Below, piece by piece: positions 629-62,993 of a stretch of DNA of 64,000 nucleotides. Position 1 is the first letter of the stretch. Every line of letters begins with the position of its first letter. The position numbers and the translations under genes were made by a program. The notes below the pieces were generated by a model. That model ran no database searches. It was not told the origin of the DNA and saw nothing but the letters and a program-made list of their open reading frames with translations. The DNA is from a virus (taxonomy: Duplodnaviria > Caudoviricetes): IMG/VR virus record IMGVR_UViG_3300026101_000001, positions 1 to 64,000 of that record; one strand, written 5' to 3'.

Positions 629-647
629 GTTGTAGCTCCAATTATCG

Positions 648-1217
648 TCAATCTCTTAGCGCTATGCGCTTATTTATCCAACCAAAGACAAATGTTTCGT
701 CTGTCTCTCGGGATTCGGCCAGTTCTAAATAATAAGCCCCTTGTAAACAATTGAGCGCTTTTAAAAGAACAGGTTCGGCCAAGGCTTTACGATGAGCAAA
801 GTAAAGCTGCAAGGCCTTAAGGGTTTTGCTACCAAATATTCCATCCACCTTTATATCGATGTAGATAGTTTGCATCTTATTAAAGGCATTCAACGCACGC
901 TGCAGGAACTTAATTCCTGTTCCGGTACCAAGATTCACCCCAGCTTCAAACACCTCCCACGCTACGTCAGGGCTTACCGAAGCCAGCTCCGAGATACGAG
1001 GGCCAAACCAATAGGTCTGTAAGTAGATTTCTCGGGCTTTGGATTGTGGCATATCTTTCATAGCGCCCATATAACCGTGAGCGCGTGCAACCTTTTCAGT
1101 AATTCCCCAGTTCGTAGGCCCACCCTTATCGTGTGGGTTATCTACGTACCCCGCTTCTAGTTTCACAATTTGAGCGACGTAAGCTTGGACTCTTGGGTCT
1201 GCGGAGTAGTTAGCCAT
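648..1217 (-). CDS. Endolysin, glycoside hydrolase family 108 with peptidoglycan-binding domain
   Basis: EAGYVDNPHDKGGPTNWGIT GH108 motif; LQRALN/VDGIFGSKT and FVFGWINKRI PG-binding-type C-terminus; start moved to ATG 1217 after GAGG. Confidence 0.88.
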   Translation of the reverse strand: MANYSADPRVQAYVAQIVKLEAGYVDNPHDKGGPTNWGITEKVARAHGYMGAMKDMPQSKAREIYLQTYWFGPRISELASVSPDVAWEVFEAGVNLGTGTGIKFLQRALNAFNKMQTIYIDIKVDGIFGSKTLKALQLYFAHRKALAEPVLLKALNCLQGAYYLELAESRETDETFVFGWINKRIALRD

Positions 1218-1668
1218 TTTTAGCCTCAAAATTTTTGTTTTTAACCAGTTCTTTTAAATAGGACATTGTTTGTGATTGCTGGTTACTGATCTGGGTCATA
1301 TGTTGAATGACGATACTTTGGTCAGATTCCAGTTTTGAAAGACGGTGATTTATACCTGACAGGGCTTGGTCAATATGTTGCTTGTTGAATTCAAGCTTTT
1401 CGTTAACGCGTTCTTCTCTAGGGTGAGCCAATGCTACGTGTTCTTTAAATGCTGCCAGCTCTCCCGAAATTTTTGTAACCGCAGCATTGGCGGAAGCGTG
1501 ATTTTTATTCACGGTCTCCCATAGGTTTTTATTACTCTGCGAAAAACTTTCCTGTGAGCTTTTCATATCGGACTTTATCCCCGATATGATAAATAGCGAT
1601 ACAGTTACCGCTACGCCACTAAGGGTGGCCATCACTCCCAAGAGTGCTAGCAAGGTTGTTGAGTCCAT
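1210..1668 (-). CDS. Membrane protein with N-terminal TM helix and coiled coil (possible holin/antiholin)
   Basis: TTLLALLGVMATLSGVAVTVSLFII hydrophobic segment; position upstream of endolysin. Confidence 0.5.
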   Translation of the reverse strand: MDSTTLLALLGVMATLSGVAVTVSLFIISGIKSDMKSSQESFSQSNKNLWETVNKNHASANAAVTKISGELAAFKEHVALAHPREERVNEKLEFNKQHIDQALSGINHRLSKLESDQSIVIQHMTQISNQQSQTMSYLKELVKNKNFEAKNG

Positions 1669-1669
1669 C

Positions 1670-2062
1670 TTAGTACCCCAAATACTTCATTAAACCGAGA
1701 TTAATACCTAGTGAACTCAAAATAATTAGCCCCCAAACACCAAAGTATGAGAGCTTTAAGCGAAGGGTATTTATAGAAAAATAAGATACATCCGAGGTCC
1801 GCGTTTTAAAGTTAAGAAACTTGCGGTAGTCCCCGCTCTTTTCTGCTGCTAGAAAAGATTCCAGTATCTGGGAGACACTATCTTCGTAACTAACGTCCAG
1901 AAGTAATGAAGTAAACGTGTAACGGCCTTTCTTAACGGCCAGAGGCGAACAGATAAATAGAGCGACAAGTTTTTGTCTTTCATTGAAGATTTTTATAACT
2001 TCACTTTCGGTAGGAATTTGCTCAACCTTTAAATTGAGCTTAGAGGGATCGAGTATGCCCAT
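1670..2062 (-). CDS. Hypothetical protein with C-terminal TM segment
   Basis: 130 aa ORF; YFGVWGLIILSSLGINLGLM; AGGCGG RBS. Confidence 0.55.
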   Translation of the reverse strand: MGILDPSKLNLKVEQIPTESEVIKIFNERQKLVALFICSPLAVKKGRYTFTSLLLDVSYEDSVSQILESFLAAEKSGDYRKFLNFKTRTSDVSYFSINTLRLKLSYFGVWGLIILSSLGINLGLMKYLGY

Positions 2063-2103
2063 CTTGCCGCCTAAGTATCGTCAATTAGCCTAATTTTCAA
2101 TCA

Positions 2104-2132
2104 AGGATACTACCCTTAAGCAGGGGTGTAAA
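2104..2132 (-). promoter_or_regulatory. Sigma70-like promoter for the lysis cassette
   Basis: TTTACA (2132-2127), 17 bp, TATCCT (2109-2104). Confidence 0.55.
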
Positions 2133-2162
2133 CGAGCAATGGCCATCCTTGGCCATTTAGGT

Positions 2163-8656: not shown

Positions 8657-10079
8657 TGACAGGTATCCTTATTTTTATTGACTCAACAGTCATACTGCCT
8701 GTAATTGCGTTATTAAAGCGTTTAAAATAAATTCGTTCAGAGTTTGTAAGAAACCTATACGGTTCAGCTTCATAAACAATATTGGGAGCGCTATTGGAAA
8801 TGGTTACTGCCATGTGACGGTTCATAGCATGGACTACAAGAATTATTTCAAAGCTGTATTCGTCATAGTCGTCACCGAAGAACCTCAAAGCATCAGTCGC
8901 GCCGGACGCATCATCTACGGAGTAGCTACGGTAGTTATTAGGGTCTTGCGTCCAGCTTAGCCCCATGTAGTTAGGTGTTTGAGGTGTTATATCTTCGCTA
9001 TACCAGTATCCATCTGATTTTTGGTAGAAGGTTCTGAACGGGCTTTTTAACGTGCCAAAAGCAACATCAAAATAACCATTTAGCGAACGATAGTAAGAAC
9101 GGTCTGCATCCAACGTAGCCCACGAGTTATCGAGTTCTACATAGTCAATAATCCCTTCAAAGTATTCGCTACTGAACTCTCCTATTTTGTATAGGTCAGT
9201 AACCGCAGTCTCATACTCATGCCACTGGTGATTAGCTAAAGTAGGGTTGCCAGGCAAACCATTGCCGCCTGCACCCATCGGGTAAACTCTAAGCTTTATT
9301 CTGCCTGAGTAAGCAGAGTTAAGGCGTATGAATGTGCCTCGTGGGAAAATTGCGAATTTCCTTGAACCAACGACCGTAGGAATAGTTACCCACCTGTCTG
9401 TTAATGAGATATGCACTAACCCACGCACATCATCGTAACGAATTTGAGGTTCATTATTAGGTGAGTCTTCGGGTAAAACCTCTGTCTTCTTAAGCGTCGG
9501 ATAGTCACTTAGAAGATGAGTAAGGCTTTGGTTTTGACGAACCGGAGGGCTTAGGGCCTGAGTGCGCTTATTGTCCGTGTCGATATCATCGGGCAGCTGC
9601 TCGACAGACACCTTGCCGCCAATTTCAGGAAAATTAGGGAAACGCTTTGCTGTCTCGGGGAGCACTTCATTTATATCACCCTGTACTTGCACCCAAGTTG
9701 GCCATTGCGTAGCGGTCACAGGGGGGTCGATAATAATGCCCCAGCTAACTTCATCAACCGAACCTGAACCCGCCGCAGCCTCTACAAACGCCTCATAAGC
9801 CGCACGATTAGCCTCTACCGCTGTAAGATACGTGTCAGGGTCCCCCAGTGGAACGACTCGGGCTGAAACCCCGTCAACGTTCGCATGGGGCCACGGCTTA
9901 TCCAGTGTTAAGGTTCGAGCGTTAGAATCACTTTCAAGAATCGTTACTGGTACGGTGTAACCTTCAATAAAGAGCTGACTGTTTTCTTTTACGGAAAAGT
10001 TTGAATCCCCTGAGTTAATCTGAACTAAGGTTTGATTCTGATTTACGGTTACGGAAGTGAAGTCTCTAATATAACTCAT
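8646..10079 (-). CDS. Tail fibre protein
   Basis: 477 aa directly after J; VTVNQNQTLV N-terminus and SWGIIIDPP..QWPTWVQVQG tail-fibre-type repeat. Confidence 0.6.
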   Translation of the reverse strand: MSYIRDFTSVTVNQNQTLVQINSGDSNFSVKENSQLFIEGYTVPVTILESDSNARTLTLDKPWPHANVDGVSARVVPLGDPDTYLTAVEANRAAYEAFVEAAAGSGSVDEVSWGIIIDPPVTATQWPTWVQVQGDINEVLPETAKRFPNFPEIGGKVSVEQLPDDIDTDNKRTQALSPPVRQNQSLTHLLSDYPTLKKTEVLPEDSPNNEPQIRYDDVRGLVHISLTDRWVTIPTVVGSRKFAIFPRGTFIRLNSAYSGRIKLRVYPMGAGGNGLPGNPTLANHQWHEYETAVTDLYKIGEFSSEYFEGIIDYVELDNSWATLDADRSYYRSLNGYFDVAFGTLKSPFRTFYQKSDGYWYSEDITPQTPNYMGLSWTQDPNNYRSYSVDDASGATDALRFFGDDYDEYSFEIILVVHAMNRHMAVTISNSAPNIVYEAEPYRFLTNSERIYFKRFNNAITGSMTVESIKIRIPVSEY

Positions 10080-13000
10080 TAGGCGGGTCTCTCTTCTACA
10101 CTAACAAGGCTCAAACGCTGTGAGTCGATAAATTGTTGTAGTAAACCTCGTTGCTGGTTTGTTACTCGGAGTCTGTAGTAGAAGCTGTCTTGCGATGTGT
10201 TTGTATCGGTATAGGTGAATGCTCCACTGGTGATATCCCTTTGTATACAAGAGCTAGAGTCAGGGTCAGAATAATCATCCGCGTTAAAATCTATGTAAGT
10301 CATAGTCCCCGTGATATTCATTCTTTGAAGTTCAGACCAACCCGAACCGGTGAAGCTACGCTCAAGAATAAGGGTGGCGGAGGGAACGAAATCTTGATTA
10401 GTGGGACAGGCATCACCTGAGGTAAATGTGCCTCGCCAACTCAAACTACAGTTAACAGTCTTGGGGTTACCATTAGTAGTAAATGGCCCGACTTCAACTG
10501 AAGGGTTAAGCGACAATAAGGTACTATCTCCACCATTAATCAACTGGCCGGTAGTTACAGACCCACCGAAATATTCGTTACCGTTAAGGTCTCTCCAACC
10601 TAAAGATGCGTTCTGCTTGGTTAAAGCATCATAATCAGGTTCAGATCCATTGAGAATTGGTGTTCCTTTCCATATCCAAAGGTTGTCGGGACCAAATCCA
10701 TTAGGGTCCTCTATTTCCATTACGTTTGGTGTAACCGTAACTTTTCGAGTTGAAACTAACGTTCCTCTAACCTCAACATCCGCAGTCATTACCAGCTTTT
10801 CTGATGCTGAGTCGTAGGTGAAGAAATCTTTCCCCGCTTTATTGGAGAACGTTAGGTTATCCATATAAAGCTTAATAGCGCTAACATCGCTCCCGCCTCT
10901 AATTTCGAGGCCCGTGAAGCTTTGTGTTTCGTCAACAACACCCAGCGTAAAACTGGCTTCGAGACCCCCAATCGCATTTTCTAAAGCTTGCATATAGCTC
11001 ACAACCGAGACGGAATCCCCGCTAGTATTCACGATTTTAAGTTCCGTGAACGCACGGGCCAACGGTGCTCCCATAATCCAATTACCGTCGTCGTCTTCGT
11101 AACCGATTTGAACAATATTGTTTTCAACAATTTGGGTTTGAACCGTCTTGTCTCCAACCTTACCTCGTAAGGCAATAACGTCGAGTTGCGTTATCTTATT
11201 CGCATCATCAAGACTCGACTGGGTAAGAATAAGGTTTTCGTAAGTCTCACCAAGAGCCGTGGTCCGTTCATCCCAGACAGTCATATCAGCAAGCATCTGA
11301 GTAATACTGTCACTAAGAGATTTACCCCAGTCTGGGCCTTCGTGGTTGAGAACTTGATCAATAACCCCTTCAACATCAACTTGAAAGGCTTCTGTTGCGG
11401 TAATCTCTTTATGAACCCATAAACCAAACCCCTCTTTTGAGGCTAAGCGGTACCAGATATGAAAGACTTGTCCTTCTGCGGAGGAATACAATGTAATAGT
11501 GCTACCGTTCGAGTATTCTTTTGCCTCGGTGATTACATTCTCACCGTGATACTTAAACTCGTAGTAACTGGTGGTTTTATCTACCTTTGGAGGGGTGAGC
11601 GTAATAATCCCACCTTCATTGGTGATAGTCGGTTCTTCAGGAGGTGTTGGTGGTGCCGTAACCGTAAACGTCAGGCTCTTAGGCTTCCCATACTTCAATG
11701 TGTTTGTGAAGGGCTTCACTTTAACGAGATAGTTCTCTGCAGCTCTAAGAAAGCCGAAGACTTGGCTACTATCATAAATAGTGTAATGGGAGATAACACT
11801 CCGGCCATCTGGCTTATAAAGCGTTACTTCATAACCGTAGTTATTATCATCCCACGTTACCAAATGGGGGTCTTCGTCTGAGAAAACGTACTGGTAATTT
11901 AGGTTCGTAATATCCGTCGCAGGGTTACTTACTTGGTAGACTAAAGGACTTTGGAACAAGTCTGGGTAATGTTCTCCTACAAGGTCTATTACTCGGGCCG
12001 TAATATAAAGGTCTGAAGGTAACTCCACACCATTCTCTGAACAAGCAACTTCAAAGTCGCTTTTCGGCACAATCAATGACGCCCTTGCCAGCTTCGTTAA
12101 GAGGTGCACGCGGTTATCTGGGTCTACATCATCATAAATTTTAAACTCAATTCCTAAGACACCATTGGTTTCCAGCAAGTTAACCTTGTTTACTTCGGTA
12201 GAACCAAAGTTATACATGACCTTACTATCAATGGTGAGGGCATAGTTCTCATACTTAATAGCGATTTCAGGGACGATACCCGCATCACGTAAGTCATTGG
12301 CCGCGACCATGTTGGTAGACCATTGAAGTTCGGTCCACGGGCTGGCCGTATCCCCTTGAGCGCTTCTAACTTCAATCTTGATATCACCCAGCTTAACGTT
12401 CTGAATCTCGAAGTAGAGATTATTGGTCTTCGTGGTGTACTCTCGACCATTCACAGACTCTTCGGTAATACGAACCTCGAAATAACCCCCAGGTGGTAAC
12501 GGGGCCTCAAGCTCCCATGCTATCCAAAGGTTTATTTGTTCAATGCCGCGCACCTGAATATGCTCTTCGTCAACGACTCTTAGGTTTTTAACTTTCCTAA
12601 CTTGAGGTCGAAGCAAGAACGAGTATTTCGGTGCCTCAGATATAATAAGATTATCGGCGTCCCCATGTTTATTGAGGTTTACTTCTTGACAATAGAAGTC
12701 ATAGAGCTCAGGTTGGCTGTCATTTTCCTGAACCGTGATAATGCGCCAAGGTTTAGGCAACCCTATTAGTTGACCGTTTTGTGACGCGGATACGACAACC
12801 GGCGCATACTTATTGAAAAGGTTAAGGTCCGGCATAGGCTGTTTAAGTTTCAAGCGATAAATAGGCTTGGCCACATCCGAAGAGAGAACATCCATTGTAA
12901 AATCGAAGTTCTCATATTTACCCATCACTTTTACTTTGTAGGTCCCGCCCTCATCAAAGTAAACCGGATCACGTAGGGTTACAGCTTTAGTCTCTAACTT

Positions 13001-14656
13001 AACCGCACGCCCTGAATACGCATGACCCGTTTCAGGGTCAACAATATTAATGATATCCATAGGCTCGAATTCCATCCCGAGCTGCGGCGCAGTAAATGAT
13101 ACCGTGCGTACTTCTGTAGTAACTGAAGAAATATAAAACGTCATACGGCGCTTTACTTCCCATACATTTGTTGCGCCTTTGGCATCAAACTCGTAGGTGT
13201 TGAGACCGTATTTTAGAATAGACTCTTCATCGCGTATTTCAGCGACGTACTGTTCTTGATAATCTAAAGACGCATCGATGTAGCTCGATGTAACCGCATT
13301 ATGTCGTTCTGACAATGCAGAGAAGTTATACGAGAAAGGTGACCCGCCCGTTTCAGACACACACATTTCAGGCGTGACCCACGCCACCGGTAAATCAGGG
13401 AGGTCCGCAATAAATTTAATTTCACCGGTATCCTGCTCAATAGGCCTAGCAAACGCGCTACCCAAAACATAACGAAGAACGTCCCACCCATTTTGAGGGT
13501 CTGTTAATACCGCGTTGAAGGTATATCGTGGTGCGTTCTCTTCTCCGGTAATAGGGTTGGTTAGGTTCTTTTCATTTGTCTGAAGGTCATAACCGTCTGC
13601 ATACTTAGCCATACGGTAGACGTTGTAACGGTTTATACGTACACGAGGGTTTGCTTTTACGACACCCCAAACAGGATTAGTTACCAGTTCGTGAGCTATC
13701 CAAAAAGGATTATCTGTGGTTTCTTTTTCCGCTTTAAATTGCCCATCCCACGCGGAGCTTTCTTCGTAGGTTTTATTCTTAGCGTCATAATTAGATGGGA
13801 TGGCGCACTTAATACCATCATAATTCGCACTGACGGTAGGAATACGCGTCATTTGCTGACCCAGAACACCAACTACGTGCATCATCGCAAGCCCAGGATG
13901 GTATTCTAGGTCTGGGTCGTCATAGTCGGCCCCATTCTCTGTATAAGCATCCCCAGATTTAGTTAGTAACTCATAACTGGTCCAAGATACCTCAGCTACA
14001 TCTTCCTCATTCGAGTCTGTGGTTAGACGGGTTACCTTAATCTCAAATTGGTCCTCAGGGTTAGTTCTCGGTAACCGAATGTTATAAACTCTTACAAAGG
14101 GGCTGACTGTAGTTTTGCCTGAAATTGTTAAACTTCTAGAAATCCATTCCGAATCTAGTAAATTTTTATACTGAATTGTAAAGCTGACCCTATGAGTCTT
14201 CGAACCATCATCGGTATAACGAACCAGTTGAGAAACGGTGAAACGTAATTCAATTTCATCAAAACCTTTTACCGTTGGTACCGTAGTTCTTGTTACAGGG
14301 GCTTGATAAGTAAGTTGCGCACCTACTTGTTGAATAATATTTTGTCCACCCAAGCCAAACCATATAGGGGTTTGGCCTTCTTCAGGGTCGTCCTTAGCAG
14401 AAATAAGCGTACCTTGTTCGAAACGAAGCATTAAGCTAGCGTTATCGAAGTTGGTTTGATTTAAGCTGTTGAAGACTGGCGTATCATCAATGAAGATATT
14501 GCGGAGCTTTTCTTCTGGGGTATCTCCTACCACGCCACCAATAGGTCCTTCGGAAATCCCAAGAACAAATTCGAATGCATCAGTAGAAAATAAATTATCC
14601 GCGTCGTTAGAGGGACCCCCTCCACCACCACGGCCTTTGAAAGTGTTATTCGTCAC
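10079..14656 (-). CDS. Tail tip/host specificity protein (lambda J-like)
   Basis: 1525 aa; GISEGPIGG, NIFIDDTP, TDNPFWI, PRYTFN, Fn3-like region; position after I-like gene. Confidence 0.85.
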   Translation of the reverse strand: MTNNTFKGRGGGGGPSNDADNLFSTDAFEFVLGISEGPIGGVVGDTPEEKLRNIFIDDTPVFNSLNQTNFDNASLMLRFEQGTLISAKDDPEEGQTPIWFGLGGQNIIQQVGAQLTYQAPVTRTTVPTVKGFDEIELRFTVSQLVRYTDDGSKTHRVSFTIQYKNLLDSEWISRSLTISGKTTVSPFVRVYNIRLPRTNPEDQFEIKVTRLTTDSNEEDVAEVSWTSYELLTKSGDAYTENGADYDDPDLEYHPGLAMMHVVGVLGQQMTRIPTVSANYDGIKCAIPSNYDAKNKTYEESSAWDGQFKAEKETTDNPFWIAHELVTNPVWGVVKANPRVRINRYNVYRMAKYADGYDLQTNEKNLTNPITGEENAPRYTFNAVLTDPQNGWDVLRYVLGSAFARPIEQDTGEIKFIADLPDLPVAWVTPEMCVSETGGSPFSYNFSALSERHNAVTSSYIDASLDYQEQYVAEIRDEESILKYGLNTYEFDAKGATNVWEVKRRMTFYISSVTTEVRTVSFTAPQLGMEFEPMDIINIVDPETGHAYSGRAVKLETKAVTLRDPVYFDEGGTYKVKVMGKYENFDFTMDVLSSDVAKPIYRLKLKQPMPDLNLFNKYAPVVVSASQNGQLIGLPKPWRIITVQENDSQPELYDFYCQEVNLNKHGDADNLIISEAPKYSFLLRPQVRKVKNLRVVDEEHIQVRGIEQINLWIAWELEAPLPPGGYFEVRITEESVNGREYTTKTNNLYFEIQNVKLGDIKIEVRSAQGDTASPWTELQWSTNMVAANDLRDAGIVPEIAIKYENYALTIDSKVMYNFGSTEVNKVNLLETNGVLGIEFKIYDDVDPDNRVHLLTKLARASLIVPKSDFEVACSENGVELPSDLYITARVIDLVGEHYPDLFQSPLVYQVSNPATDITNLNYQYVFSDEDPHLVTWDDNNYGYEVTLYKPDGRSVISHYTIYDSSQVFGFLRAAENYLVKVKPFTNTLKYGKPKSLTFTVTAPPTPPEEPTITNEGGIITLTPPKVDKTTSYYEFKYHGENVITEAKEYSNGSTITLYSSAEGQVFHIWYRLASKEGFGLWVHKEITATEAFQVDVEGVIDQVLNHEGPDWGKSLSDSITQMLADMTVWDERTTALGETYENLILTQSSLDDANKITQLDVIALRGKVGDKTVQTQIVENNIVQIGYEDDDGNWIMGAPLARAFTELKIVNTSGDSVSVVSYMQALENAIGGLEASFTLGVVDETQSFTGLEIRGGSDVSAIKLYMDNLTFSNKAGKDFFTYDSASEKLVMTADVEVRGTLVSTRKVTVTPNVMEIEDPNGFGPDNLWIWKGTPILNGSEPDYDALTKQNASLGWRDLNGNEYFGGSVTTGQLINGGDSTLLSLNPSVEVGPFTTNGNPKTVNCSLSWRGTFTSGDACPTNQDFVPSATLILERSFTGSGWSELQRMNITGTMTYIDFNADDYSDPDSSSCIQRDITSGAFTYTDTNTSQDSFYYRLRVTNQQRGLLQQFIDSQRLSLVSVEERPA

Positions 14657-14687
14657 TTAAGCCCCAATATCGTCAATTAACCAAATT

Positions 14688-16740: not shown

Positions 16741-16962
16741 CGTCAATTTCCCTCAATTTTCAGCTAGTATACCGAAAAGAAAAAGAGATTGAATATTTTT
16801 CAAGCGACCAAAAACAGAACACCCCAGCTAAAAGCTGAGGCGTTGATTTGGAAATTGACGATAATTAGGAGCCACATGGACTACTAACCAAGGCCAATAC
16901 TACGGACACACAATTTAGTTGTCAATAATAATCTTTAAATTAATTAATAATTATTCTATTAA

Positions 16963-45209: not shown

Positions 45210-45219
45210 GGGGTTGGAT

Positions 45220-46188: not shown

Positions 46189-46210
46189 CTCTTAAATTTG
46201 GAAATTGACG

Positions 46211-47353: not shown

Positions 47354-47411
47354 AAACGGGGGAGAATATTCCCCCCTCTTAATTAACTTTTAAAATTGGA
47401 AATTGACGATC

Positions 47412-48215: not shown

Positions 48216-48439
48216 AGAACCATTGCGAAAACCCTGAGTATGATGTGACGCAAGGACAAGTAGTGTGTCATGACTCAGGTACATTTAACAAAATTGTTGG
48301 TGAGGCTCTTGAAAACATGACTGAAGACAACTGGTTTACACAAGAGCTTTGGCTTTCAACGGTTGAGCACAAAGGTAAGCGTGTTCAAGTTCAATTGAAA
48401 GTAATGGCAGACGATTTAAGCTTTATAGACGAGAACTAA
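48212..48439 (+). CDS. Hypothetical protein
   Basis: ATGA overlap. Confidence 0.55.
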   Translation: MKNHCENPEYDVTQGQVVCHDSGTFNKIVGEALENMTEDNWFTQELWLSTVEHKGKRVQVQLKVMADDLSFIDEN

Positions 48440-48442
48440 ATC

Positions 48443-49594: not shown

Positions 49595-49651
49595 CCTGGG
49601 GGGAATGTTCTCCCCCTTCAATTAACTTTTACAATTTGGAAATTGACGATT

Positions 49652-51037
49652 ATGACTAATCAAACTGTTGCTACAAAACACGAAGATATCGAACGCGCTA
49701 CTTACTCCCCTGAAGATAACAAGCTTCGTATTTATCCTATCAATCGCCTAGATACAGACCTTTACAACGAGCTTAAGGAACTGGGCTTTGGTTGGGCGCC
49801 AAAACAAGAACTCTTCGTAAAACCTTCATGGTCCCCTGAAGCGGAAGACTTATGTATTCGCTTGGCCGGCACGATTGAACCTGAAGACACGACGATGGCC
49901 GAGCGTGCCGAAGCGAAGGCTGAGCGGTTAAAAGCGCTTGCTGAAAAGCGTGCTGACCAAGCGCGAGGTTTTAGTGCTGCGGCGAACAATATGCAATTTG
50001 GTGATCAACCTATCCTTTTAGGCCACCACAGCCAGCGTAAAATGCAGAAAGCGCAAGAAGCTCAAGAGCGTAACGAAGAACGCGCCAAAGAAGCCAGCTC
50101 AGCGGTCCGCTATTGGAACTGGCGCATGATGGGTACTATTGCTCATGCCAACCACAAAAATCGCCCTGACGTTATTTATAGACGTATTAAAACGTTACTC
50201 ACGGACTTGCGAAAGCAACAACGCTATTTGCACGCTGCAGGGGATTGCTTATCTCTTTGGGAACGCTGCAAAGGTATGGAGGATGCCGAGAAGCAAAAAG
50301 AGTTTGCTTTGATGATTGCGAATTACCGTTGGGATATCTGCATTTCAGATAGTTACCGCGACATTAAGGAAGATAAGAAACCTTTATCGGAAATTATCGA
50401 CGCCAATATTGAGCTAGGTACCAAGCGTAAGAACGACCAGAACTTACACCGCAAGATAAACCATATCTTGAACCGTCTTACTTACGAACGGGCTCAGTTG
50501 GGGGAAGTTGAATATTTTACCGGTAAGCTTACCGCCCCTGTATTGCAAACGTTCCTTAGAACGCATGGCGCGGATAAACCTAAAGCGACCAAATCTGACG
50601 TTGGTTGGATTGCGGAGTGTGACAACGACTTACCTATCCACATTGGTACAGGTTCGACACTGGAACTGGAAGAATTGGAATGGCGCGACCTGATGTATGA
50701 GGTGGGCTATGAAGTGCCGGTTCCTAAGCCGAAGGCTCCCCCGATTGTTAACCTGTCACCGGAAGAAGTAAAAAGCGTAACGGTGAAAATGTGGAGCAGC
50801 GCGAACAAGTACCCTATCGTCTCAATGACGAAAGCGGAGTATTCAGCAACCCATAGTGAGCAGCGGGGCGTTAAGCCGAGTACCTGTGGTCAGTTCAGAG
50901 TAAAAGTTTGTCGAATTGTTCCTGAGGGCCAGGATTTTTGGAAAGGCGAATGGGCTGTGGTTTACCTAACGGACTCAAAGACGCACGCCGCTCCGAATTC
51001 AACGGCTCTTGAGTATGTGGAAGTGGAGACAGCCTAA
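49652..51037 (+). CDS. DUF3560-like protein
   Basis: TYSPEDNKLRIY, AERAEAKAER, GDQPILLGHHSQ, AVRYWNWR. Confidence 0.75.
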   Translation: MTNQTVATKHEDIERATYSPEDNKLRIYPINRLDTDLYNELKELGFGWAPKQELFVKPSWSPEAEDLCIRLAGTIEPEDTTMAERAEAKAERLKALAEKRADQARGFSAAANNMQFGDQPILLGHHSQRKMQKAQEAQERNEERAKEASSAVRYWNWRMMGTIAHANHKNRPDVIYRRIKTLLTDLRKQQRYLHAAGDCLSLWERCKGMEDAEKQKEFALMIANYRWDICISDSYRDIKEDKKPLSEIIDANIELGTKRKNDQNLHRKINHILNRLTYERAQLGEVEYFTGKLTAPVLQTFLRTHGADKPKATKSDVGWIAECDNDLPIHIGTGSTLELEELEWRDLMYEVGYEVPVPKPKAPPIVNLSPEEVKSVTVKMWSSANKYPIVSMTKAEYSATHSEQRGVKPSTCGQFRVKVCRIVPEGQDFWKGEWAVVYLTDSKTHAAPNSTALEYVEVETA

Positions 51038-51654
51038 TGGATTCATCAGTGTATGTAAGACCCAATAAACCCAAGCATGTTAAGGCACCGGAAAAAGTAG
51101 AACTCGAGCCTATCGAGTTCTCCGAGGCCCCAAAGCCTGTCGTTGTTCATGCCTCAACGGAATGCCACGTTACGCCCTATGATGTGGCGGAGCGTATGGT
51201 CGAGCTGTTGGAGTTGGAACCCGAAGATCACGTTCTAGAACCTTCGGGTGGTACCGGTAATTTGGTTAAGGCGGTACAAAACACCGGCCACTCAGCGGAT
51301 CTTATTACTATTGTCGAGCGTGAATACTCGTTGGTTGAAGCTTTGTTACAGCGTTTTTGTAGTGCCGATTGCGAGGGGGCTATCCCCTTGGTGCATCACG
51401 AAGACTTCCTTAGCTGGGCCGAGGCTCGTTACAACGCGGGGTATCGTTATGAAAAGATCATAATGAACCCCCCGTTCAAACAGGTAAAAAAGCATATGGA
51501 GGCCGCACGCAAGTTACTCCGCTTCACAGGGGTACTTGTTGCTGTGGTACCAACGTCGTTCGACCACCCCAGTTACGAGGAAGTCGAGACGTTACCCAGC
51601 GACACGTTTAGCACCTGTAAGGTGTTCACGAAAATCGTGCGGTATGAGGGTTAG
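51037..51654 (+). CDS. SAM-dependent amino (N6A/N4C-type) methyltransferase
   Basis: VLEPSGGTG motif I and IIMNPPF motif IV. Confidence 0.85.
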   Translation: MDSSVYVRPNKPKHVKAPEKVELEPIEFSEAPKPVVVHASTECHVTPYDVAERMVELLELEPEDHVLEPSGGTGNLVKAVQNTGHSADLITIVEREYSLVEALLQRFCSADCEGAIPLVHHEDFLSWAEARYNAGYRYEKIIMNPPFKQVKKHMEAARKLLRFTGVLVAVVPTSFDHPSYEEVETLPSDTFSTCKVFTKIVRYEG

Positions 51655-51656
51655 CC

Positions 51657-51848
51657 ATGGCTATTTTAAAAGTTGAGTGGCGGTATGTGTATAAGGCCAA
51701 AGGTAAAGTAGACCCCAACCTAGACCGGAAGCTAACAGCTCAAGTATTACCAATGATATCTAAGGCCCTAGAAGATAATCAAACCGAAGGGTTTCTGGAT
51801 GCGGTATCTGAAGGAGACAAACTGAAAGGCCATTGGATGTTGGTCTAA
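51657..51848 (+). CDS. Hypothetical protein
   Basis: GAGG RBS; 63 aa. Confidence 0.5.
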   Translation: MAILKVEWRYVYKAKGKVDPNLDRKLTAQVLPMISKALEDNQTEGFLDAVSEGDKLKGHWMLV

Positions 51849-51898
51849 CTACAGGGGGGAATGTTCCCCCCTTTTAATTAACTTGTTGGAAATTGACG

Positions 51899-52930
51899 AT
51901 GCAAACGAAACTAGTATTACAAGATGATACGTACTTCCATGCGCCAAGTGTGGACTTAGATAGCTACGATCACATTATCGTATGCCACTCTATGGGGAAA
52001 GATAGCTGGGCCGCATTACTTCATATCCTGGCGGAGGGTGCAGACCGAAAGAAAATAGAAATTTGGCACCATGAAGTAGATGGCCGTGAAGGTTCTAACC
52101 TAATGGATTGGGCGTTTATTTCAGACTATGCAAAGAAAGCCTGTACCTCGATGGGACTACCACTCTACTTTAGTTGGCTACAAGGGGGGTTTGAAGGTGA
52201 AATGCTTAAAGAGAACACTATCAGTCAACCGATACTTACTCAAACGCCGGATGGCCTGTTGCTACTAGAGAGGGATACTAACCGCTCTAAGCCCGCTACC
52301 CGTTTAAGGTTCCCCCAGCAGTCCGCGAGTCTCCAAACAAGATGGTGTAGCTCAGCACTGAAAATTGACGTAGCCCGACGCGCTTTAAATAACCAAGACA
52401 GGTTTAAGGGTAAACGCACGTTAATGATAACTGGGGAACGTCGTGAAGAGTCGAGTAACCGAGCTAAATACAATCAGCTAGAGCCCCATGCTTGTGATAC
52501 TCGTTATGGTCGAACAGCTCGGCACGTTGATGCTTGGCGTCCCGTTCTTGAGTGGTCAGAACAAAAAGTCTGGGACACATTAAAGCAAGCGGGTGTAGTT
52601 GCACCTGTCCCCTATCGCTTAGGCTGGAACCGTTCAAGCTGCCAAGCGTGTATTTATAATCACGGGAGTATATGGGCCACCATGAAGAAATACTTTCGTG
52701 AGCGTTTTGAAAAGGTGTTGAATTACGAAAAGCAATTCAACACAACCATTAGCCGTAGCAAGAAAAATATTGATGAGTTAGCGGCGCTCAACAAACCGTT
52801 AGAAATATCGGACTCGGCAGCGCTGGCCCAAGCCCAGCAATCCGAATATGTTTTACCTATATTCTGCCACCCTGACGACTGGGAAATGCCTGTAGGTGCA
52901 TTCCGCTCTGAAGGTTGCGGTAGTGTTTAA
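51899..52930 (+). CDS. PAPS reductase family (PP-loop) protein
   Basis: SMGKDS PP-loop, RWCSSALKI, TGERREES.NRA, WRPVLEWSE, SCQAC. Confidence 0.82.
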   Translation: MQTKLVLQDDTYFHAPSVDLDSYDHIIVCHSMGKDSWAALLHILAEGADRKKIEIWHHEVDGREGSNLMDWAFISDYAKKACTSMGLPLYFSWLQGGFEGEMLKENTISQPILTQTPDGLLLLERDTNRSKPATRLRFPQQSASLQTRWCSSALKIDVARRALNNQDRFKGKRTLMITGERREESSNRAKYNQLEPHACDTRYGRTARHVDAWRPVLEWSEQKVWDTLKQAGVVAPVPYRLGWNRSSCQACIYNHGSIWATMKKYFRERFEKVLNYEKQFNTTISRSKKNIDELAALNKPLEISDSAALAQAQQSEYVLPIFCHPDDWEMPVGAFRSEGCGSV

Positions 52931-52949
52931 TTAACTGAGGAAATTGACG

Positions 52950-53396
52950 ATGAACCGTATAAGTAATTTTGATTTTGAGTTATCCCTATCTCACGCAGGT
53001 GAGGCTACTGACGACACGACTAAGATGAAAGGCGAGATTATTCGTGTTCTAAAAGAGACGATTGCTGAACTCGAGGGTGGCGTCGGGGATAGCGAAGAAT
53101 TTTGGAAAAAGTCCTTAAATGATATTAACGGACGTCCTTTTGGTAATGCGTATCTTAATGTTGAAGAAATGGACTGGATTTCAGACTGGGACGAATGGAT
53201 TGAACACTGCAAAGAGTATATCCGTGAGAACGGTTTCTACCTCGAACAGGAAAGCACCACTGTCTATGAGTGGGACACGTTAGCCGAACTAGACGAAACG
53301 GCGTTAGCTGAGTGGTTCAGTAATTACACGGACAGTGCAGTAACCCGAGAAGAAGTCTGCCCTGAAGCGCGTAACTGGGGATGGGACAGCGAATGA
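52950..53396 (+). CDS. Hypothetical acidic protein
   Basis: GAGGAAATTGACGATG start. Confidence 0.65.
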   Translation: MNRISNFDFELSLSHAGEATDDTTKMKGEIIRVLKETIAELEGGVGDSEEFWKKSLNDINGRPFGNAYLNVEEMDWISDWDEWIEHCKEYIRENGFYLEQESTTVYEWDTLAELDETALAEWFSNYTDSAVTREEVCPEARNWGWDSE

Positions 53397-53605
53397 GTGG
53401 TAAAGACCTAGGCACCCTGCTTCGCACAAAAGAAATTCTCGCGGGTTACTTTATTCCTCGACCTTATGAGCCGGCGGATAAAACACTTAACCGTGCTAAG
53501 AACGAAGCAATACAGAGACTACAACAACAAATTGTAGATATCCGTAATTTAACGAGTGAAGAGTTCTTCACTCGATCACCGAAGGAAATTGACGATGCAA
53601 ATTAG
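53393..53605 (+). CDS. Hypothetical protein
   Basis: ATGA overlap. Confidence 0.55.
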   Translation: MSGKDLGTLLRTKEILAGYFIPRPYEPADKTLNRAKNEAIQRLQQQIVDIRNLTSEEFFTRSPKEIDDAN

Positions 53606-53945
53606 TAACGAAGACAAACAATCAATCCTTGAAGAAATTAACGCGGCCTTTATAGGCCATTGTGTTCGAGCCTACATGAGTTTGCTTAACCCAAGCCTTA
53701 AAGAGTTTATTGAAGCTCACCTAGAAGAGATAGATCCTCAAGTGGTGTTTATTGATAACGATATTGATATGGGGGCCGCGTCTCGAGCTCGAAACTCTTT
53801 GAAGCCTACCTTGTTCGTGTTCACTGAAAATATGAGAGCCGACTCGTATATAACGAGCTGTGCGGACAAGATAGAAATACCTGAAGAGATTCGTTTACGC
53901 GTTTTTGAAGCTTGGCATGACGCCCAGCCCAGTTGCGAAATTTAA
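53595..53945 (+). CDS. Hypothetical protein
   Basis: AGGAAATTGACGATG start. Confidence 0.65.
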   Translation: MQISNEDKQSILEEINAAFIGHCVRAYMSLLNPSLKEFIEAHLEEIDPQVVFIDNDIDMGAASRARNSLKPTLFVFTENMRADSYITSCADKIEIPEEIRLRVFEAWHDAQPSCEI

Positions 53946-54002
53946 AACCCTGAAAGGGGGAATGTTCTCCCCCTCTTGAAATTAACTTGTTGGAGATTGA
54001 CG

Positions 54003-54842
54003 ATGCACCCTGAACTATCAAAACAACTAAAGGCAAACTGCCAGAAGTTAAGCCTAGACTTTAACACCCTTGATCTAATTGGTGAGTCTGAGACTCAAAT
54101 AAAAGATATAACAATTAAAATCGAGCGTGATGGGGATGCTGAAAGCCCTCGTGAGTGGGATAACGTGGGCACAATGGTGTGCTGGCATAGTAGATACAAT
54201 TTAGGTGACGAACAACCTTCAGTAAGCTACCAAGACTATCGTATCAGTATGGTAGAAGAAGTTGAGCCAGGATTTGAGGCGATGTTGGAAAGATTAGAAC
54301 ATAACTGGCCTTCAACAAATTGGGATGCCCAAGGAACTAAAGATTACCAAGAACTGGTTGAGGCGAAGATTGAAGCGCGACTTGATAAATACTACTTCAT
54401 CCTCCCACTTTACCTTCACGACCATTCTGGAATTACTATGAATACAGGGGGGTTTTCGTGTTCTTGGGACTCTGGCCAAGTTGGTTTTATCTACGTCACA
54501 AAAGAGAAAGCCCGTGAAGAGTATGGTTTTAAGCGTTTAACAAAAGAACGTATTCAAAAGGTCTTTGAATTCTTAGATAGTGAAGTTAAAACCTATGCCG
54601 CGTATTTAGAGGGGGATGTGTATGGTTATGTTATCGAAGGCCAAGACATTGATGATTCTTGCTGGGGTTACGTTGGCCCTGACGGTGAGGGATGGGCGTT
54701 ATTAGAAGCTTTATCGATAGTAGCTAACCATAAAAAAGAGCGTGCTGGCAGTCGAATTCAAAAAATTAAGACTTGGATCAAAAACCAAGTCCCGTTACTA
54801 AAACGTCGTGAACTGGCAACAGAACTACCAATACTGTTATAG
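54003..54842 (+). CDS. Hypothetical phage/MGE protein
   Basis: SPREWDNVGTM, LPLYLHDHSGITM, WDSGQVGFIY. Confidence 0.7.
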   Translation: MHPELSKQLKANCQKLSLDFNTLDLIGESETQIKDITIKIERDGDAESPREWDNVGTMVCWHSRYNLGDEQPSVSYQDYRISMVEEVEPGFEAMLERLEHNWPSTNWDAQGTKDYQELVEAKIEARLDKYYFILPLYLHDHSGITMNTGGFSCSWDSGQVGFIYVTKEKAREEYGFKRLTKERIQKVFEFLDSEVKTYAAYLEGDVYGYVIEGQDIDDSCWGYVGPDGEGWALLEALSIVANHKKERAGSRIQKIKTWIKNQVPLLKRRELATELPILL

Positions 54843-55931: not shown

Positions 55932-56252
55932 TTACTCCCAAAACGTCGCTAAGAATCTTTTAAAATCCGAGAATGGGATATCCGATAAGGTAATTTTACT
56001 CACTACCGCACCGAGTCCCTTCTTCATGTGAGCGCGTTTTGCAATTTGTTGGTATTTGTAGAATTCTTCTGTGGAAATTTTGCCGTATCGCTCGGCATTT
56101 GAAATAGTATTCTTGTGAACGTCCGCAGCAATAGCGAGTTCTTCTTGCGTCAATCGATAATTCTGGCGCATGTTTTTAAACTTTCGAGCTATTCGCCTAC
56201 GACGCTCTAGCTCCCAGGGTGGTTCTATATTATCGTCAATTTTCTTAGACAC
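55932..56252 (-). CDS. XRE-family HTH regulator (repressor candidate, no peptidase domain)
   Basis: FKNMRQNYRLTQEELAIAADVHKNTISNAER; GGAG RBS, GTG start. Confidence 0.85.
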   Translation of the reverse strand: MSKKIDDNIEPPWELERRRRIARKFKNMRQNYRLTQEELAIAADVHKNTISNAERYGKISTEEFYKYQQIAKRAHMKKGLGAVVSKITLSDIPFSDFKRFLATFWE

Positions 56253-56436: not shown

Positions 56437-56481
56437 TAACTTTGCCTACGGGCTTAACTTTAAAATTTGGAAATTGACGAT

Positions 56482-58844: not shown

Positions 58845-58870
58845 TTACTCAGACAATCAGGAAATTGACG

Positions 58871-59563
58871 ATGCAACTGCAAAAAGAACCCGCACCCCTC
58901 GGGCACTATGGTATTCACGAGGACGAAGGTGTTAACTATATCTACCAAGATACTTGTCCGCATGGCTGGAACTTTATCGGCCTAAGCACCAAATCAAATC
59001 TTACGGTTAAACAACTGAGAAACCAGTGCTCACATAATATCAATGTGAATTTAGCCACACGTAAGCTAAGCAAAATCCACTTAAGTAAGTTCAACAACAT
59101 TGTAGCCGACCCACTGGTTCAAGCTATGTTACCGGTACCGAATGGAAAAACTTACTTCCTAGACGAAGAACAACTACCGGATGCTGCGGTATGGCTTGCG
59201 TGCTTAGAACGGTTGAACTCTCCACTTCATACGTGGGTGAAGCCTTTGTTCGCTGTGAGCATGAACCACGCTATCAAACACATTGATAAAACCAATATTC
59301 ACCCAATGGTGTTTGTTGATTTGAAGAACACCGATAACGAATCTGTATTGAAGCTGGCCACGGCTGCAAAGACGTCTCCTAGAACGGTGATCTTCTGCGG
59401 TGACTCCTCAATGGTGCTCCCAAAACACGTTCATCGTTTAGAAACGAAACTTAGTGAACTTATGCCACTACAAGACTTAATCAGCTTGCCCCTAGAACAC
59501 TTGGGGAGTTACGTATTATCTGAGTACTGCAAAGGTATTCGTTCGTTTGACAAAGTAGCATAA
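58871..59563 (+). CDS. Hypothetical protein
   Basis: AGGAAATTGACGATG start. Confidence 0.7.
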   Translation: MQLQKEPAPLGHYGIHEDEGVNYIYQDTCPHGWNFIGLSTKSNLTVKQLRNQCSHNINVNLATRKLSKIHLSKFNNIVADPLVQAMLPVPNGKTYFLDEEQLPDAAVWLACLERLNSPLHTWVKPLFAVSMNHAIKHIDKTNIHPMVFVDLKNTDNESVLKLATAAKTSPRTVIFCGDSSMVLPKHVHRLETKLSELMPLQDLISLPLEHLGSYVLSEYCKGIRSFDKVA

Positions 59564-59593
59564 GAATAATTGACGATAAGAGACACGATAGCC

Positions 59594-59935
59594 ATGTTGA
59601 AATTTTCAGAAAGACTCGCGCTTTTGAAGAATGCGATACGAGAAAAAGACCTTAAGCAGAAAGACCTTGCAGACGCGCTAGGCTGCAATCAAGCCAAAGT
59701 TTCTTTGGCTCTTTCTGGGACTAAAGAGGTCCCCATGGAATTTTTACTCGAGATACTTCTTCAATCTGAGTTCCCAATCGAAAGAGTGTTCCCCGACTTG
59801 AAAAACGATTTACAAGCGATTGTGACGTTGCTTGAGAAAGGGGCCAGTCAACAGGCCACGACTAATTTACTTAATTTGATGAAATTAACTAACCATTATG
59901 ACCAGCATTCAAAAGATACCAAAGCAGCCAGCTAA
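59594..59935 (+). CDS. XRE-family HTH protein
   Basis: LKQKDLADALGCNQAKVSLALSG. Confidence 0.8.
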   Translation: MLKFSERLALLKNAIREKDLKQKDLADALGCNQAKVSLALSGTKEVPMEFLLEILLQSEFPIERVFPDLKNDLQAIVTLLEKGASQQATTNLLNLMKLTNHYDQHSKDTKAAS

Positions 59936-61376: not shown

Positions 61377-61466
61377 GGATCATTATGCAAATGACAAAAG
61401 TTGCACTAGCTGTAAAAATTGCGCTGTCTACAGACGCGTTTCATCAAACCGTTACGGAGAATAAAA

Positions 61467-61736
61467 ATGCTACAGTTTAAGCCAACTGAAATAAGAGTTA
61501 TTCCCGCTATGCTCAAAGCCAACTTAGATTTTTTTTCTAAGGCGTTGAATAATCCCTCGGACCAAGCAGAGCATCAGGCAGAGTACACTCTACTCAAGAT
61601 GCAGCAAGCACTTCAGAACCTTAAAGGTAAAGAATTAGAGACTTTCCTAGCGGAATCAAAGGAAAATATAGCGACACTAAGAACGTTCTTAGATGCCGCG
61701 GAAAAAGAAATTGCTACATTAGTTGACGAAGGTTAA
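61467..61736 (+). CDS. Hypothetical protein
   Basis: GGAG RBS before ATG 61467. Confidence 0.6.
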   Translation: MLQFKPTEIRVIPAMLKANLDFFSKALNNPSDQAEHQAEYTLLKMQQALQNLKGKELETFLAESKENIATLRTFLDAAEKEIATLVDEG

Positions 61737-61869
61737 TTAATAAGCTAAGGTTATCATCTATACCGCATTAAACTGCGATATAGCTGAACTTCGGAGAAAA
61801 GCGAAGGGCGAATGCCGCACAAACAGTAATTAATCAAAATGTAATTAATCTACAATCAGGAAATTGACG

Positions 61870-62931
61870 ATGAACAATATCGAACAAATGATCGCCGCTG
61901 CTCAAAATAACGCAGCTCAAGCCGCTACTACTCAGCAAGAAACTCAAGTTACCCAGCAAGCCGTAGGTCAAGACTACCAGCAAGCTAACACCGCTCAAGC
62001 CGAGACTACGCAGCAGCAAGCTACACAGGCTCAAGCTAACCCTCAGGTTGTTAACCAGACTGAGACTTACACGCAGCAAGCTAACCCTCAAGCGGTTAAT
62101 ACACAGCAAGCAAATGCTCAGCAAGCTACGCAGCAAGCTAATCCGCAAGTTAACGCTCAAGCGAGTGCTATCCCGGCTCATATTCAGCAACAAGCGCAGC
62201 AAGCTAATACTGCTCCACAGCAAGCACAACAACCACAGCAAACGCCTATGGCTGTGAACCCAGTTGGAAACACCGGCATGGACCTACCAGCGAACTTACC
62301 GCCAGAGTTGGCTAAGTTTATTGGTCAGCGCGAAATGTCGATGGATACCATGTCTAACTCTGACCTGTTGGTTCAAGATTGGCTGAAGCCAAGCTACCAC
62401 GGTATGGTTTTAGGTAGTGCTCCGTCAACACTTCTTAACCCCTTCCAGGTTGAGATTGATATGACTGAGAACGTGGGCTATATGTTGTGCCAAATGGTTC
62501 GCTGGACCGTAGCAGGGGCTACAGGTGATCAAACCAACTATGTCCACACATACGATGGTTTGATTGGTTCAGATGGTCAACCTTGGGCGAATGCGGTAAT
62601 GACAGCCTACCGCACCACCACAGACCCGAAAAAACCTAACGTACCGTTCCCAAGTGTTCAGTTACCAATGCGTTTAATCAACGACATTGCTGACCAACAA
62701 GGCACGGTAATTGCCCAAGCAGGTATTATGATTGGTCATACTACGGCTAAGACGGGATGGCAGAACTGGCAGAACTTCCACAATGCGTGTAAGCAAGCTG
62801 GTTTATTAGGTCAGAAAGTGATTGTTGAAGTGTCTAACCAACCGGTTGCTCCTAAAGGTATCACTTACAAGTGGGGTACCTTGGAATTCAAACTGATTGG
62901 TCCGGCACAAGGCCAAATCGCAGCACAATAA
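61870..62931 (+). CDS. Protein with Q/A/N-rich low-complexity N-terminus (possible ssDNA-binding protein)
   Basis: 41 Q in the first 125 aa; folded C-terminal domain; between helicase and exonuclease. Confidence 0.65.
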   Translation: MNNIEQMIAAAQNNAAQAATTQQETQVTQQAVGQDYQQANTAQAETTQQQATQAQANPQVVNQTETYTQQANPQAVNTQQANAQQATQQANPQVNAQASAIPAHIQQQAQQANTAPQQAQQPQQTPMAVNPVGNTGMDLPANLPPELAKFIGQREMSMDTMSNSDLLVQDWLKPSYHGMVLGSAPSTLLNPFQVEIDMTENVGYMLCQMVRWTVAGATGDQTNYVHTYDGLIGSDGQPWANAVMTAYRTTTDPKKPNVPFPSVQLPMRLINDIADQQGTVIAQAGIMIGHTTAKTGWQNWQNFHNACKQAGLLGQKVIVEVSNQPVAPKGITYKWGTLEFKLIGPAQGQIAAQ

Positions 62932-62947
62932 CCTTTTAATTAACTTA

Positions 62948-62974
62948 AAAAGGGTCGGCTAGTCCGGCCCTTTT
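62948..62974 (+). terminator. Intrinsic terminator
   Basis: AAAAGGGTCGG-CTAGT-CCGGCCCTTTT. Confidence 0.65.
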
Positions 62975-62993
62975 GCTCTCGGAAATTGACGAT

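Follow-up and report, generated by a model that had tools for sequence, protein, structure and literature searches.

The cluster K mycobacteriophages carry a start-associated sequence (SAS), an asymmetric 13-nt motif that includes the Shine-Dalgarno (SD) sequence, stands before many gene starts and is absent from the host (Pope et al. 2011, PMC3203893). Each K1 phage also has a single SAS in opposite orientation away from gene starts, and it was left open whether an RNA or a protein factor recognizes the motif (PMC3203893). Papers of 2024 and 2025 still call the role of SAS unknown and mention no antisense RNA (PMC11373665, PMC12699233). Here a comparable motif, the 9-mer ATTGACGAT, is analyzed in a stretch of viral DNA of 64,000 nt (the window), the first 64 kb of the 83,406-bp IMG/VR virus record IMGVR_UViG_3300026101_000001 (G000 hereafter), together with a predicted small RNA (sRNA) gene at 16891-16810. 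The sequence and its comparison with related phages make it likely that the motif is the target core of one phage-encoded, trans-acting antisense sRNA, in other words that targeting is from RNA to RNA.

An earlier sequence-only reading of the window had drawn the analogy with cluster K SAS, which is apt and may run deeper than was supposed there. In layout SAS comes closest among the known systems compared, the resemblance being limited to function or architecture. As in cluster K, the motif lies a few nucleotides upstream of starts in one orientation, is absent from the host and has one reverse copy that is not at a gene. However, the SAS consensus is GGGATAGGAGCCC, its hosts belong to another phylum, and by a test with the 13-bp consensus the phage studied here does not carry SAS. 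Furthermore, SAS is confined to the non-structural arm, many copies having the inverted repeats termed ESAS upstream, whereas the present motif occupies both arms. In the K1 phage Anaya (JF704106), gp96 and gp97 are separated by 385 nt of non-coding sequence that contain the reverse SAS (L097:31871-31883, record positions 59870-59882). Read on the transcribed strand, the sequence folds into a strong hairpin (z -4.6) with the anti-SAS CCUCCUAUCC as its 10-nt loop. The reverse SAS of Anaya may specify an antisense RNA against SAS, analogous to the system described here; it is offered as a lead only.

Nearest in mechanism are c4 of phages P1 and P7 and the Hfq-type sRNAs with many targets known from Gammaproteobacteria. 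The c4 RNA is an immunity RNA acting on the ribosome-binding site of the ant mRNA (PMC12197685). It resembles the RNA predicted here in being a phage-encoded small RNA that pairs in trans at the ribosome-binding region, with differences in seed and target setting the specificity between related phages (PMC12197685). However, c4 is processed from its target's own operon and controls one operon via two short sites, whereas the present RNA would be transcribed separately and faces about 42 near-identical sites at about half of the genes, in both arms. No sequence or Rfam relationship between the two RNAs was found. Hfq-type sRNAs such as GcvB, RyhB and OmrA/B share a 5' structure, a single-stranded conserved seed, a U-tailed rho-independent terminator and many targets near the SD. 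Hfq-type sRNAs regulate dispersed host genes via short imperfect matches that evolved target by target; here, in contrast, it is the phage's own genes that would be targeted, through a uniform match of 11-19 bp built into the translation initiation region (TIR). A genome-wide antisense sRNA against a start motif was not found described in the literature searched.

Protein-based systems have to be considered as well. The stoperators of cluster A phages, at which the immunity repressor (gp71 of L5) blocks elongation, are dozens of asymmetric 13-bp DNA sites for a protein. Like the present motif they are co-oriented with transcription and occur in both arms of a temperate phage, and they serve genome-wide silencing, as is proposed here. 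Stoperators have been contrasted with SAS (PMC3203893). Unlike the present motif, stoperators are DNA sites of a protein and are not tied to the spacer between SD and ATG; the fixed placement between SD and ATG and the wobble-only variation observed here argue against the stoperator type. RegA of T4, to which translational control of this phage had also been likened, acts on many phage mRNAs at their initiation region, but it is a protein with degenerate, AU-rich sites and has no homologue in this phage.

The start motif and its predicted antisense RNA

Exactly 36 copies of ATTGACGAT are present in the window, at the positions where at least 36 had been noticed by eye. Some 0.5 copies had been expected by chance, in agreement with a mean of 0.45 and a maximum of 2 in 100 shuffles of the window, none of which reached 36. 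In the whole record the motif is the commonest 9-mer, with 43 copies. The conserved block is in fact 13-14 nt long: GGA(A/G)ATTGACGAT, usually followed by G, with the copies used as anchors. Information content is 1.1-2.0 bits per position within this block and at most 0.4 bits beyond it. When open reading frames (ORFs) of at least 50 amino acids (aa) are taken, 40 of the 43 copies lie 0-19 nt upstream of the start codon of a co-oriented ORF, which bears out the observation that nearly all copies are in the sense of the adjacent gene at its translation start. Most copies were also rightly described as fused to SD and ATG: the final two bases of the motif are the AT of ATG in 26 of the 43 copies, and in another 8 the ATG follows after 0-1 nt. 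Six copies without upstream GGA represent the minor type with a separate SD, lying 12-16 nt before the start with that SD in between. The seventh copy of the upstream type, 37171(+), retains GGA and had been listed among the gene starts, but it stands 19 nt before an ORF of only 46 aa that is doubtful. Together with 16854(+) and 56232(-) it makes up the three exceptions to start placement.

Genes without the motif use GGAG or GAGG as SD with a spacer of 7-8 nt. Genes with the motif have GGA(A/G), then exactly ATTGACG and then ATG, so that the motif fills the spacer between SD and start. Because GGA is missing in most copies that have a separate SD, GGA behaves as the SD and the motif lies in the mRNA. 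The motif is present at 39 of 54 genes with an upstream gap of more than 10 nt and at only 3 of 34 overlapping or abutting (coupled) genes, counts that rest on crude gene calls and start choices. Sigma70 promoters had been predicted just above the copies at 2077 and 33747; a promoter-like site was found for the former, while the scan gave none for 33747 (33839 has one).

The copy at 16854(+), which had been taken for a start-associated copy, is followed by a 3-codon ORF only; the minus-strand tail operon has a gap of 216 nt at this point. The copy turned out to be part of the predicted sRNA gene itself. Read along the minus strand, this gap holds an AT-rich stretch, TTGACA-17 nt-TAGTAT, a hairpin of about 30 nt, UUAUCGUCAAUUUCCAAAUCAACG, a 12-bp hairpin and a U-run, and its ORFs are spurious, none exceeding 53 aa. 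The features of the gap, and the homologue in the cultured Pseudoalteromonas phage KB12-38, are:

16810-16891 (-): predicted trans-acting small RNA of about 82 nt, with a 5' hairpin, the unpaired linker UUAUCGUCAAUUUCCAAAUCAACG containing the anti-motif, and a terminator hairpin with U-tail
16897-16925 (-): predicted sigma70-type sRNA promoter TTGACA-17 nt-TAGTAT preceded by the AT-rich stretch (consensus scan, 10/12)
16808-16844 (-): predicted intrinsic sRNA terminator, 12-bp stem (16844-16818) followed by CUGUUUUU (consensus scan)
16854-16862 (+): wrong-strand motif copy, the complement of the sRNA seed AUCGUCAAU and no target site
16766-16793 (-): conserved block TTCAAT-16 nt-TATACT that separates the sRNA terminator from the tail gene following it (score in the promoter scan below threshold)
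MF098558 13887-13808 (-): predicted KB12-38 sRNA homologue of about 80 nt

Both promoter and terminator were reported unprompted by an independent consensus scan; that the RNA is made is inferred. The 82-nt sRNA folds with a minimum free energy (MFE) of -25.3 kcal/mol (z -4.8), leaving the anti-motif in a single-stranded linker. The sequence of this linker (about 17 nt, UUAUCGUCAAUUUCCAAAUCAACG) is complementary to the block GGA(A/G)AUUGACGAU, which comprises the SD, the 7-nt spacer and the AU of AUG. A covariance model of the sRNA (R1) has a single match in the window (E 3e-20). Searching Rfam with the sRNA gave no family above the gathering score, only a chance match to U4 of 14 bits, and BLAST of the sRNA against GenBank phages gave no match. 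Downstream of the terminator, a block TTGAAAAATATTCAAT...TATACT (16766-16803, minus strand) is common to four lineages; the TTCAAT-16 nt-TATACT pair within this region may be a promoter that restarts the tail operon after the sRNA terminator.

All 42 motif copies outside the sRNA gene pair with the sRNA over 11-19 contiguous bp. Duplex energies average -21.1 kcal/mol for genes with the motif, -8.6 kcal/mol for other genes and -6.6 kcal/mol for background windows, of which 0.6% reach -15 kcal/mol. At sites without a paired SD, extra downstream pairing is weakly seen (2.2 vs 1.4 nt), a difference that supports no claim. The copies in the window are listed below, bp being contiguous complementarity with the G000 sRNA.

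644-652 (-): target, own SD downstream, 106-aa gene 308-628, 18 bp
2077-2085 (-): target, own SD downstream, 130-aa gene 1670-2062, 11 bp
14669-14677 (-): target, own SD downstream, J-like central tail fibre gene 10079-14656, 11 bp
16739-16747 (-): target fused to SD and ATG, 162-aa tail gene 16252-16740, 15 bp
22666-22674 (-): target, tape-measure gene 17349-22667, 15 bp
23344-23352 (-): target, 115-aa gene 22998-23345, 15 bp
24237-24245 (-): target, 276-aa tail-region gene 23408-24238, 19 bp
28783-28791 (-): target, major head protein gene 27579-28784, 18 bp
30396-30404 (-): target, 388-aa head-region gene 29231-30397, 16 bp
31932-31940 (-): target, portal gene 30473-31933, 15 bp
33747-33755 (-): target, own SD downstream, large terminase gene 31952-33733, 15 bp
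33839-33847 (+): target, first gene of the plus-strand arm, 162 aa, 15 bp
37171-37179 (+): motif copy, downstream gene uncertain, 19 bp
37582-37590 (+): target, 239-aa gene, 12 bp
39436-39444 (+): target, 102-aa gene
40331-40339 (+): target, 128-aa gene
40748-40756 (+): target, 101-aa gene
42956-42964 (+): target, 51-aa gene
43104-43112 (+): target, 162-aa gene
44291-44299 (+): target, 139-aa gene, site within the 3' end of the upstream gene
44960-44968 (+): target, own SD downstream, 75-aa gene
45642-45650 (+): target, 179-aa gene
46204-46212 (+): target, C5 cytosine methylase gene
47402-47410 (+): target, 267-aa gene
49642-49650 (+): target, 461-aa DUF3560 gene
51892-51900 (+): target, PAPS-reductase-like gene
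52943-52951 (+): target, 148-aa gene
53588-53596 (+): target, 116-aa gene, site within the 3' end of the upstream gene
53996-54004 (+): target, 279-aa gene
56232-56240 (-): sense copy in codons 5-7 of the XRE-like gene (GTG at 56252), 14 bp
56473-56481 (+): target, ATP-dependent DNA ligase gene
58864-58872 (+): target, 230-aa gene
59569-59577 (+): target, own SD downstream, 113-aa gene
61863-61871 (+): target, 353-aa gene
62985-62993 (+): target, 5'-3' exonuclease gene

The copy within the XRE-like gene (55932-56252, minus strand) indeed occupies the codons assigned to it earlier, although the helix-turn-helix (HTH) assignment of the product is weak (HTH_3, 22.8 bits, just below the cut-off). 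The stretch complementary to the sRNA is 14 nt long and covers codons 4-8. Neither the 252-aa gene next to it nor the gene of the 50-aa peptide has a site. The XRE-like regulator may itself be under control of the sRNA. The junctions of the early genes (37541-54004 of the window) show a further pattern, in which a G/C palindromic hairpin is followed by an AATTAAC(T) box and then the TIR, for example at 37566, 40317, 45626, 47381, 49620, 51876, 52929 and 53980. The hairpin sequence varies, being GGGGGGAATGTTCCCCCC in G000, GGGGCATGTGCCCCC in the lineage G154 and GGGGTAACGTTACCCC in KB12-38, but a hairpin is formed in each case. The distance between the AATTAAC box and the SD varies, and the box has no complementarity to the sRNA.

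Conservation, covariation and phage specificity

Homologous sRNA units were found in six lineages: G156, G152/G153, G154, G155, L093 and KB12-38. All are located at one tail-gene junction, upstream of the orthologous 162-aa tail gene, and each has a promoter whose hexamers stand 16-17 nt apart, a 5' hairpin that differs in sequence between lineages, a seed left unpaired and a terminator. In G152, G154, G155, KB12-38 and L093 the -35 and -10 hexamers are retained with spacers of unrelated sequence, and the anti-motif is unpaired in both MFE and centroid structures of five lineages and of L093. In an alignment of seven sequences 92% of the helix cells pair, vs 29-52% in slid controls, and 5 helix pairs have changed on both sides. 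The terminator stem shows compensatory changes between lineages with 100% of cells paired. The KB12-38 sRNA was found only through synteny, its R1 score being just 19 bits. The R1 model revealed no sRNA-bearing prophage in 151 genomes of the host family, and a looser seed pattern run over IMG/VR returned mainly noise, from which R1 retained only lineages that were already known.

Seed and target have changed in step between these lineages. With the seed AUCGUCAAU, G000, G154 and G155 have 43, 29 and 27 copies of ATTGACGAT, respectively, and none of ATCGACGAT. The G152 seed is AUCGUCGAU, and this genome has 21 copies of ATTGACGAT and 19 of ATCGACGAT, often at orthologous genes; the orthologous portal site in the G152/G153 lineage, for instance, is ATCGACGAT. 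L093 has the seed CAUCGUCGAU, and CGACGATG is the prevailing motif at the gene starts of the stretch examined. KB12-38 has the seed UUGUCAAUCC against GGATTGACA targets; its RNA carries UUGUCAAUCCAAAU, its targets TTTGGATTGACAA, and GGATTGAC(A) precedes start codons. Thus a seed with A goes with T-only targets and a seed with G with T/C or C targets, a directional pattern as predicted by base pairing, since a G in the RNA tolerates U and C and an A only U. In agreement with this, the G000 sRNA loses about 6 kcal/mol on C-type targets, the G152 sRNA pairs equally with both types, and no lineage's sRNA pairs better with foreign targets than with its own, KB12-38 being clearly apart.

The remaining variation within targets follows the same rule. 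At target position -1 the copies have A (35) or G (8) but never a pyrimidine, and at position +9 a purine is present in 39 of the 43; both positions face U in the sRNA, while the T/C position of G152 targets faces G. The variable positions consequently remain pairable by wobble. The limit of target conservation also follows the limit of complementarity: in G154 and G155 the targets are conserved through ATGA and the sRNA complements extend likewise, and in G155 the SD shifts in position where pairing of the RNA with GG has been lost. At positions 72657-72677 of the G000 record, upstream of the gene of a helicase-like protein of 1167 aa, GGATTGA of the KB12-38 type lies directly 5' of the G000-type ATTGACGATG, and these adjoining motifs may be a trace of kinship between the two motif versions. 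The proposal that the motif marks a phage-wide regulon at the RNA level is supported by this anti-motif sRNA with its covarying seed in six lineages. A trans factor had been missing from it; the antisense sRNA is a candidate for that factor, and nothing points to the ribbon-helix-helix and HTH proteins that had been named for testing.

Window positions 1-127 are the 3' part of a transfer-messenger RNA (tmRNA) gene (RF00023, 87.5 bits), and the attachment sites attL and attR can be recognized from a direct repeat of 32 bp (97-128 and 83097-83128) beside the integrase gene at 81849-83087. The tmRNA fragment and the repeat indicate that the record is a prophage in ssrA of a gammaproteobacterium with short host flanks. 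Scans with PHROG and Pfam identified a siphovirus with a minus-strand structural arm (large terminase, portal, major head protein, tape measure, J-like fibre) and a plus-strand replication arm (D5-type primase, C5 methylase, DndB, ligase, helicase, 5'-3' exonuclease, RdgC, PolA, SbcCD, tyrosine integrase). A terminase fragment 99% identical to that of G000 was binned with a metagenome-assembled genome (MAG) of the Alteromonadaceae, and the closest cultured relative, KB12-38, has a terminase identity of 51%. The Alteromonadaceae are therefore the likely host family. Comparison of the G156 provirus flank with sampled Alteromonadaceae gave identities of at most 68% and hence no host genus.

The motif is specific for the phage. 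The 13-mer GGARATTGACGAT is rare in 150 other genomes of the Alteromonadaceae, none of which has more than 3 copies; the total is 56, with about 15 for the reversed control. As judged by this family-level proxy, the motif is not equally common at host gene starts. The Alteromonadaceae MAG with the terminase fragment (G001) has nine copies of the 13-mer (loci L031-L039), on contigs C69, C155, C220, C264 and C531; these contigs are 2-6.5 kb long and resemble phage fragments. They are probably pieces of the phage that were binned with, or are integrated in, that genome. The related Achromobacter phage JWF and Acinetobacter phage EAb13 have neither a repeated start motif nor an integrase, by which the start motif as a family-wide trait is ruled out. 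An integrase is encoded in all five sRNA-bearing lineages checked.

Effect of pairing, alternatives and role

According to the mechanism proposed, the sRNA would be made from its own near-consensus sigma70 promoter and ended at the intrinsic terminator, and its exposed linker would pair with the SD, the spacer and the AU of AUG in about 42 sites. Because such pairing would hide the ribosome-binding site, translational repression is the most likely effect. In characterised pairs an sRNA-mRNA duplex over SD and AUG blocks binding of the 30S subunit. The reach would extend to nearly every independently initiated cistron of the prophage, in the early as well as the late arm, and genes without a site, mostly translationally coupled to a gene with one, would follow. 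The direction of the effect and its role in the physiology of the phage are less certain than RNA-RNA targeting.

Of the alternatives, the one that survives best keeps the pairing and changes its outcome: the duplex would activate its mRNAs or lead to their processing, by cuts of RNase III or RNase E at cistrons or by mRNA stabilisation. Complementarity and covariation are compatible with either sign of the effect, and the G/C hairpins upstream of many TIRs show that the transcript architecture at cistron borders matters to these phages. However, the duplex lies over SD and AUG, no inhibitory structure was seen that the sRNA could open, and duplexes of 11-19 bp are short for RNase III. Activation or processing by the duplex is thus considered unlikely; for a processing or antitermination signal in the motif itself, both of which had been suggested, no evidence was found.

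Somewhat less probable again is that the motif is the site of a protein, either an RNA-binding repressor like RegA or a DNA-binding immunity repressor of the stoperator kind, and the antisense copy just another site. The motif is asymmetric, co-oriented with transcription and present in about 40 copies in a temperate phage, its variant ATCGACGAT is nearly palindromic, and any shared trans factor predicts concerted change of all copies. Yet no RegA homologue is encoded (a six-frame search of the whole record for PF01818 gave no match at E <= 10), and a DNA site does not need to fill the spacer between SD and ATG exactly, as 34 of the 43 copies do. A protein also leaves it unaccounted for that variation is limited to changes that keep pairing with the sRNA and that the antisense copy stands within a unit of promoter, hairpin, linker and terminator kept in six lineages.

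The motif might also act in cis only, as an initiation cassette optimised for the host ribosome or as a recombination linker, with no trans factor at all. It does form a canonical 7-nt spacer after a GGA(A/G) SD, and identical 13-mers at gene borders would favour exchange of cassettes. This explanation is very improbable: the motif is hardly used in the 150 genomes of the host family, eight copies that stand 12-19 nt upstream of a separate SD are unable to serve as spacer, the motifs of the lineages change in step with the sRNA of each lineage, and the relatives JWF and EAb13 manage without it. In the same context, TTGACG is similar to part of 16S rRNA, and AATTAACTT upstream to the epsilon enhancer of T7. 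Mimicry of, or complementarity to, rRNA was rejected, because seven identical nucleotides are no significant match to an RNA of 1.5 kb and the motif differs from phage to phage.

That the motif belongs to a phage-specific promoter or transcription signal before each gene, as its -35-like TTGACG and a weak TAnAAT-like pattern 5-12 nt upstream could suggest, is hardly tenable, because the upstream positions hold 0.2-0.4 bits vs 1.7-2.0 in the motif, the SD-like GGA precedes the motif only where it abuts ATG and the motif is hence transcribed, the G/C hairpin of the G154 lineage ends 5 nt before the SD and leaves no space for a promoter, and a scan of the 38 larger proteins revealed neither an RNA polymerase nor a sigma factor.

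Several points weigh against targeting by an antisense sRNA as proposed. The existence, ends and abundance of the RNA are predictions, several lineages have an interrupted U-tail and L093 a weak one, and the lineages are only about six, some of them close kin. The host was deduced only from a binned 3-kb contig and the host of KB12-38. Covariation alone is not decisive, because one binding protein or gene conversion would also shift the antisense copy; the case consequently rests on the promoter, the terminator, the hairpin context and the wobble pattern. Abundant lytic mRNAs, with about 42 sites in all, may titrate out a single sRNA, and its effect may be small or limited to lysogeny. The site in the XRE-like gene, finally, does not fit repression of lytic genes only.

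As to when the antisense sRNA would act, its near-consensus promoter, with no operator kept in common between the lineages, suggests constitutive expression. In the timing that we prefer, a constitutive sRNA would silence leaky lytic transcripts in the lysogen as well as the genes of superinfecting relatives, and this RNA layer of immunity would be titrated out once lytic transcription surges. The integrase gene and a small secreted-peptide gene have no site. Together with the promoter and the presence of an integrase, such site-less genes provide hints that favour a role in prophage silence and perhaps in superinfection immunity. If so, a phage with a G seed would still repress relatives of the T type, while its own C-type genes would escape a resident with an A seed. 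All of this taken jointly, a constitutive, genome-wide translational immunity RNA, immunity groups evolved through seed and target, and cluster K SAS explained in the same way, is put forward tentatively as a possible reading.

To our knowledge, no phage antisense RNA described to date controls more than a few genes, and the sRNA regulons of hosts consist of imperfect sites at scattered places. In the present case, one predicted RNA faces a uniform site that forms part of the ribosome-binding region in roughly half the genes of a temperate phage. If true, this would constitute a compact, RNA-only master switch for a whole viral genome and a natural heteroimmunity that evolves by base-pair covariation. 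It would also provide a testable hypothesis for start-associated sequences elsewhere, including those of the cluster K phages used in therapy and diagnostics, and the cultured Pseudoalteromonas phage KB12-38 opens the system to experiment.

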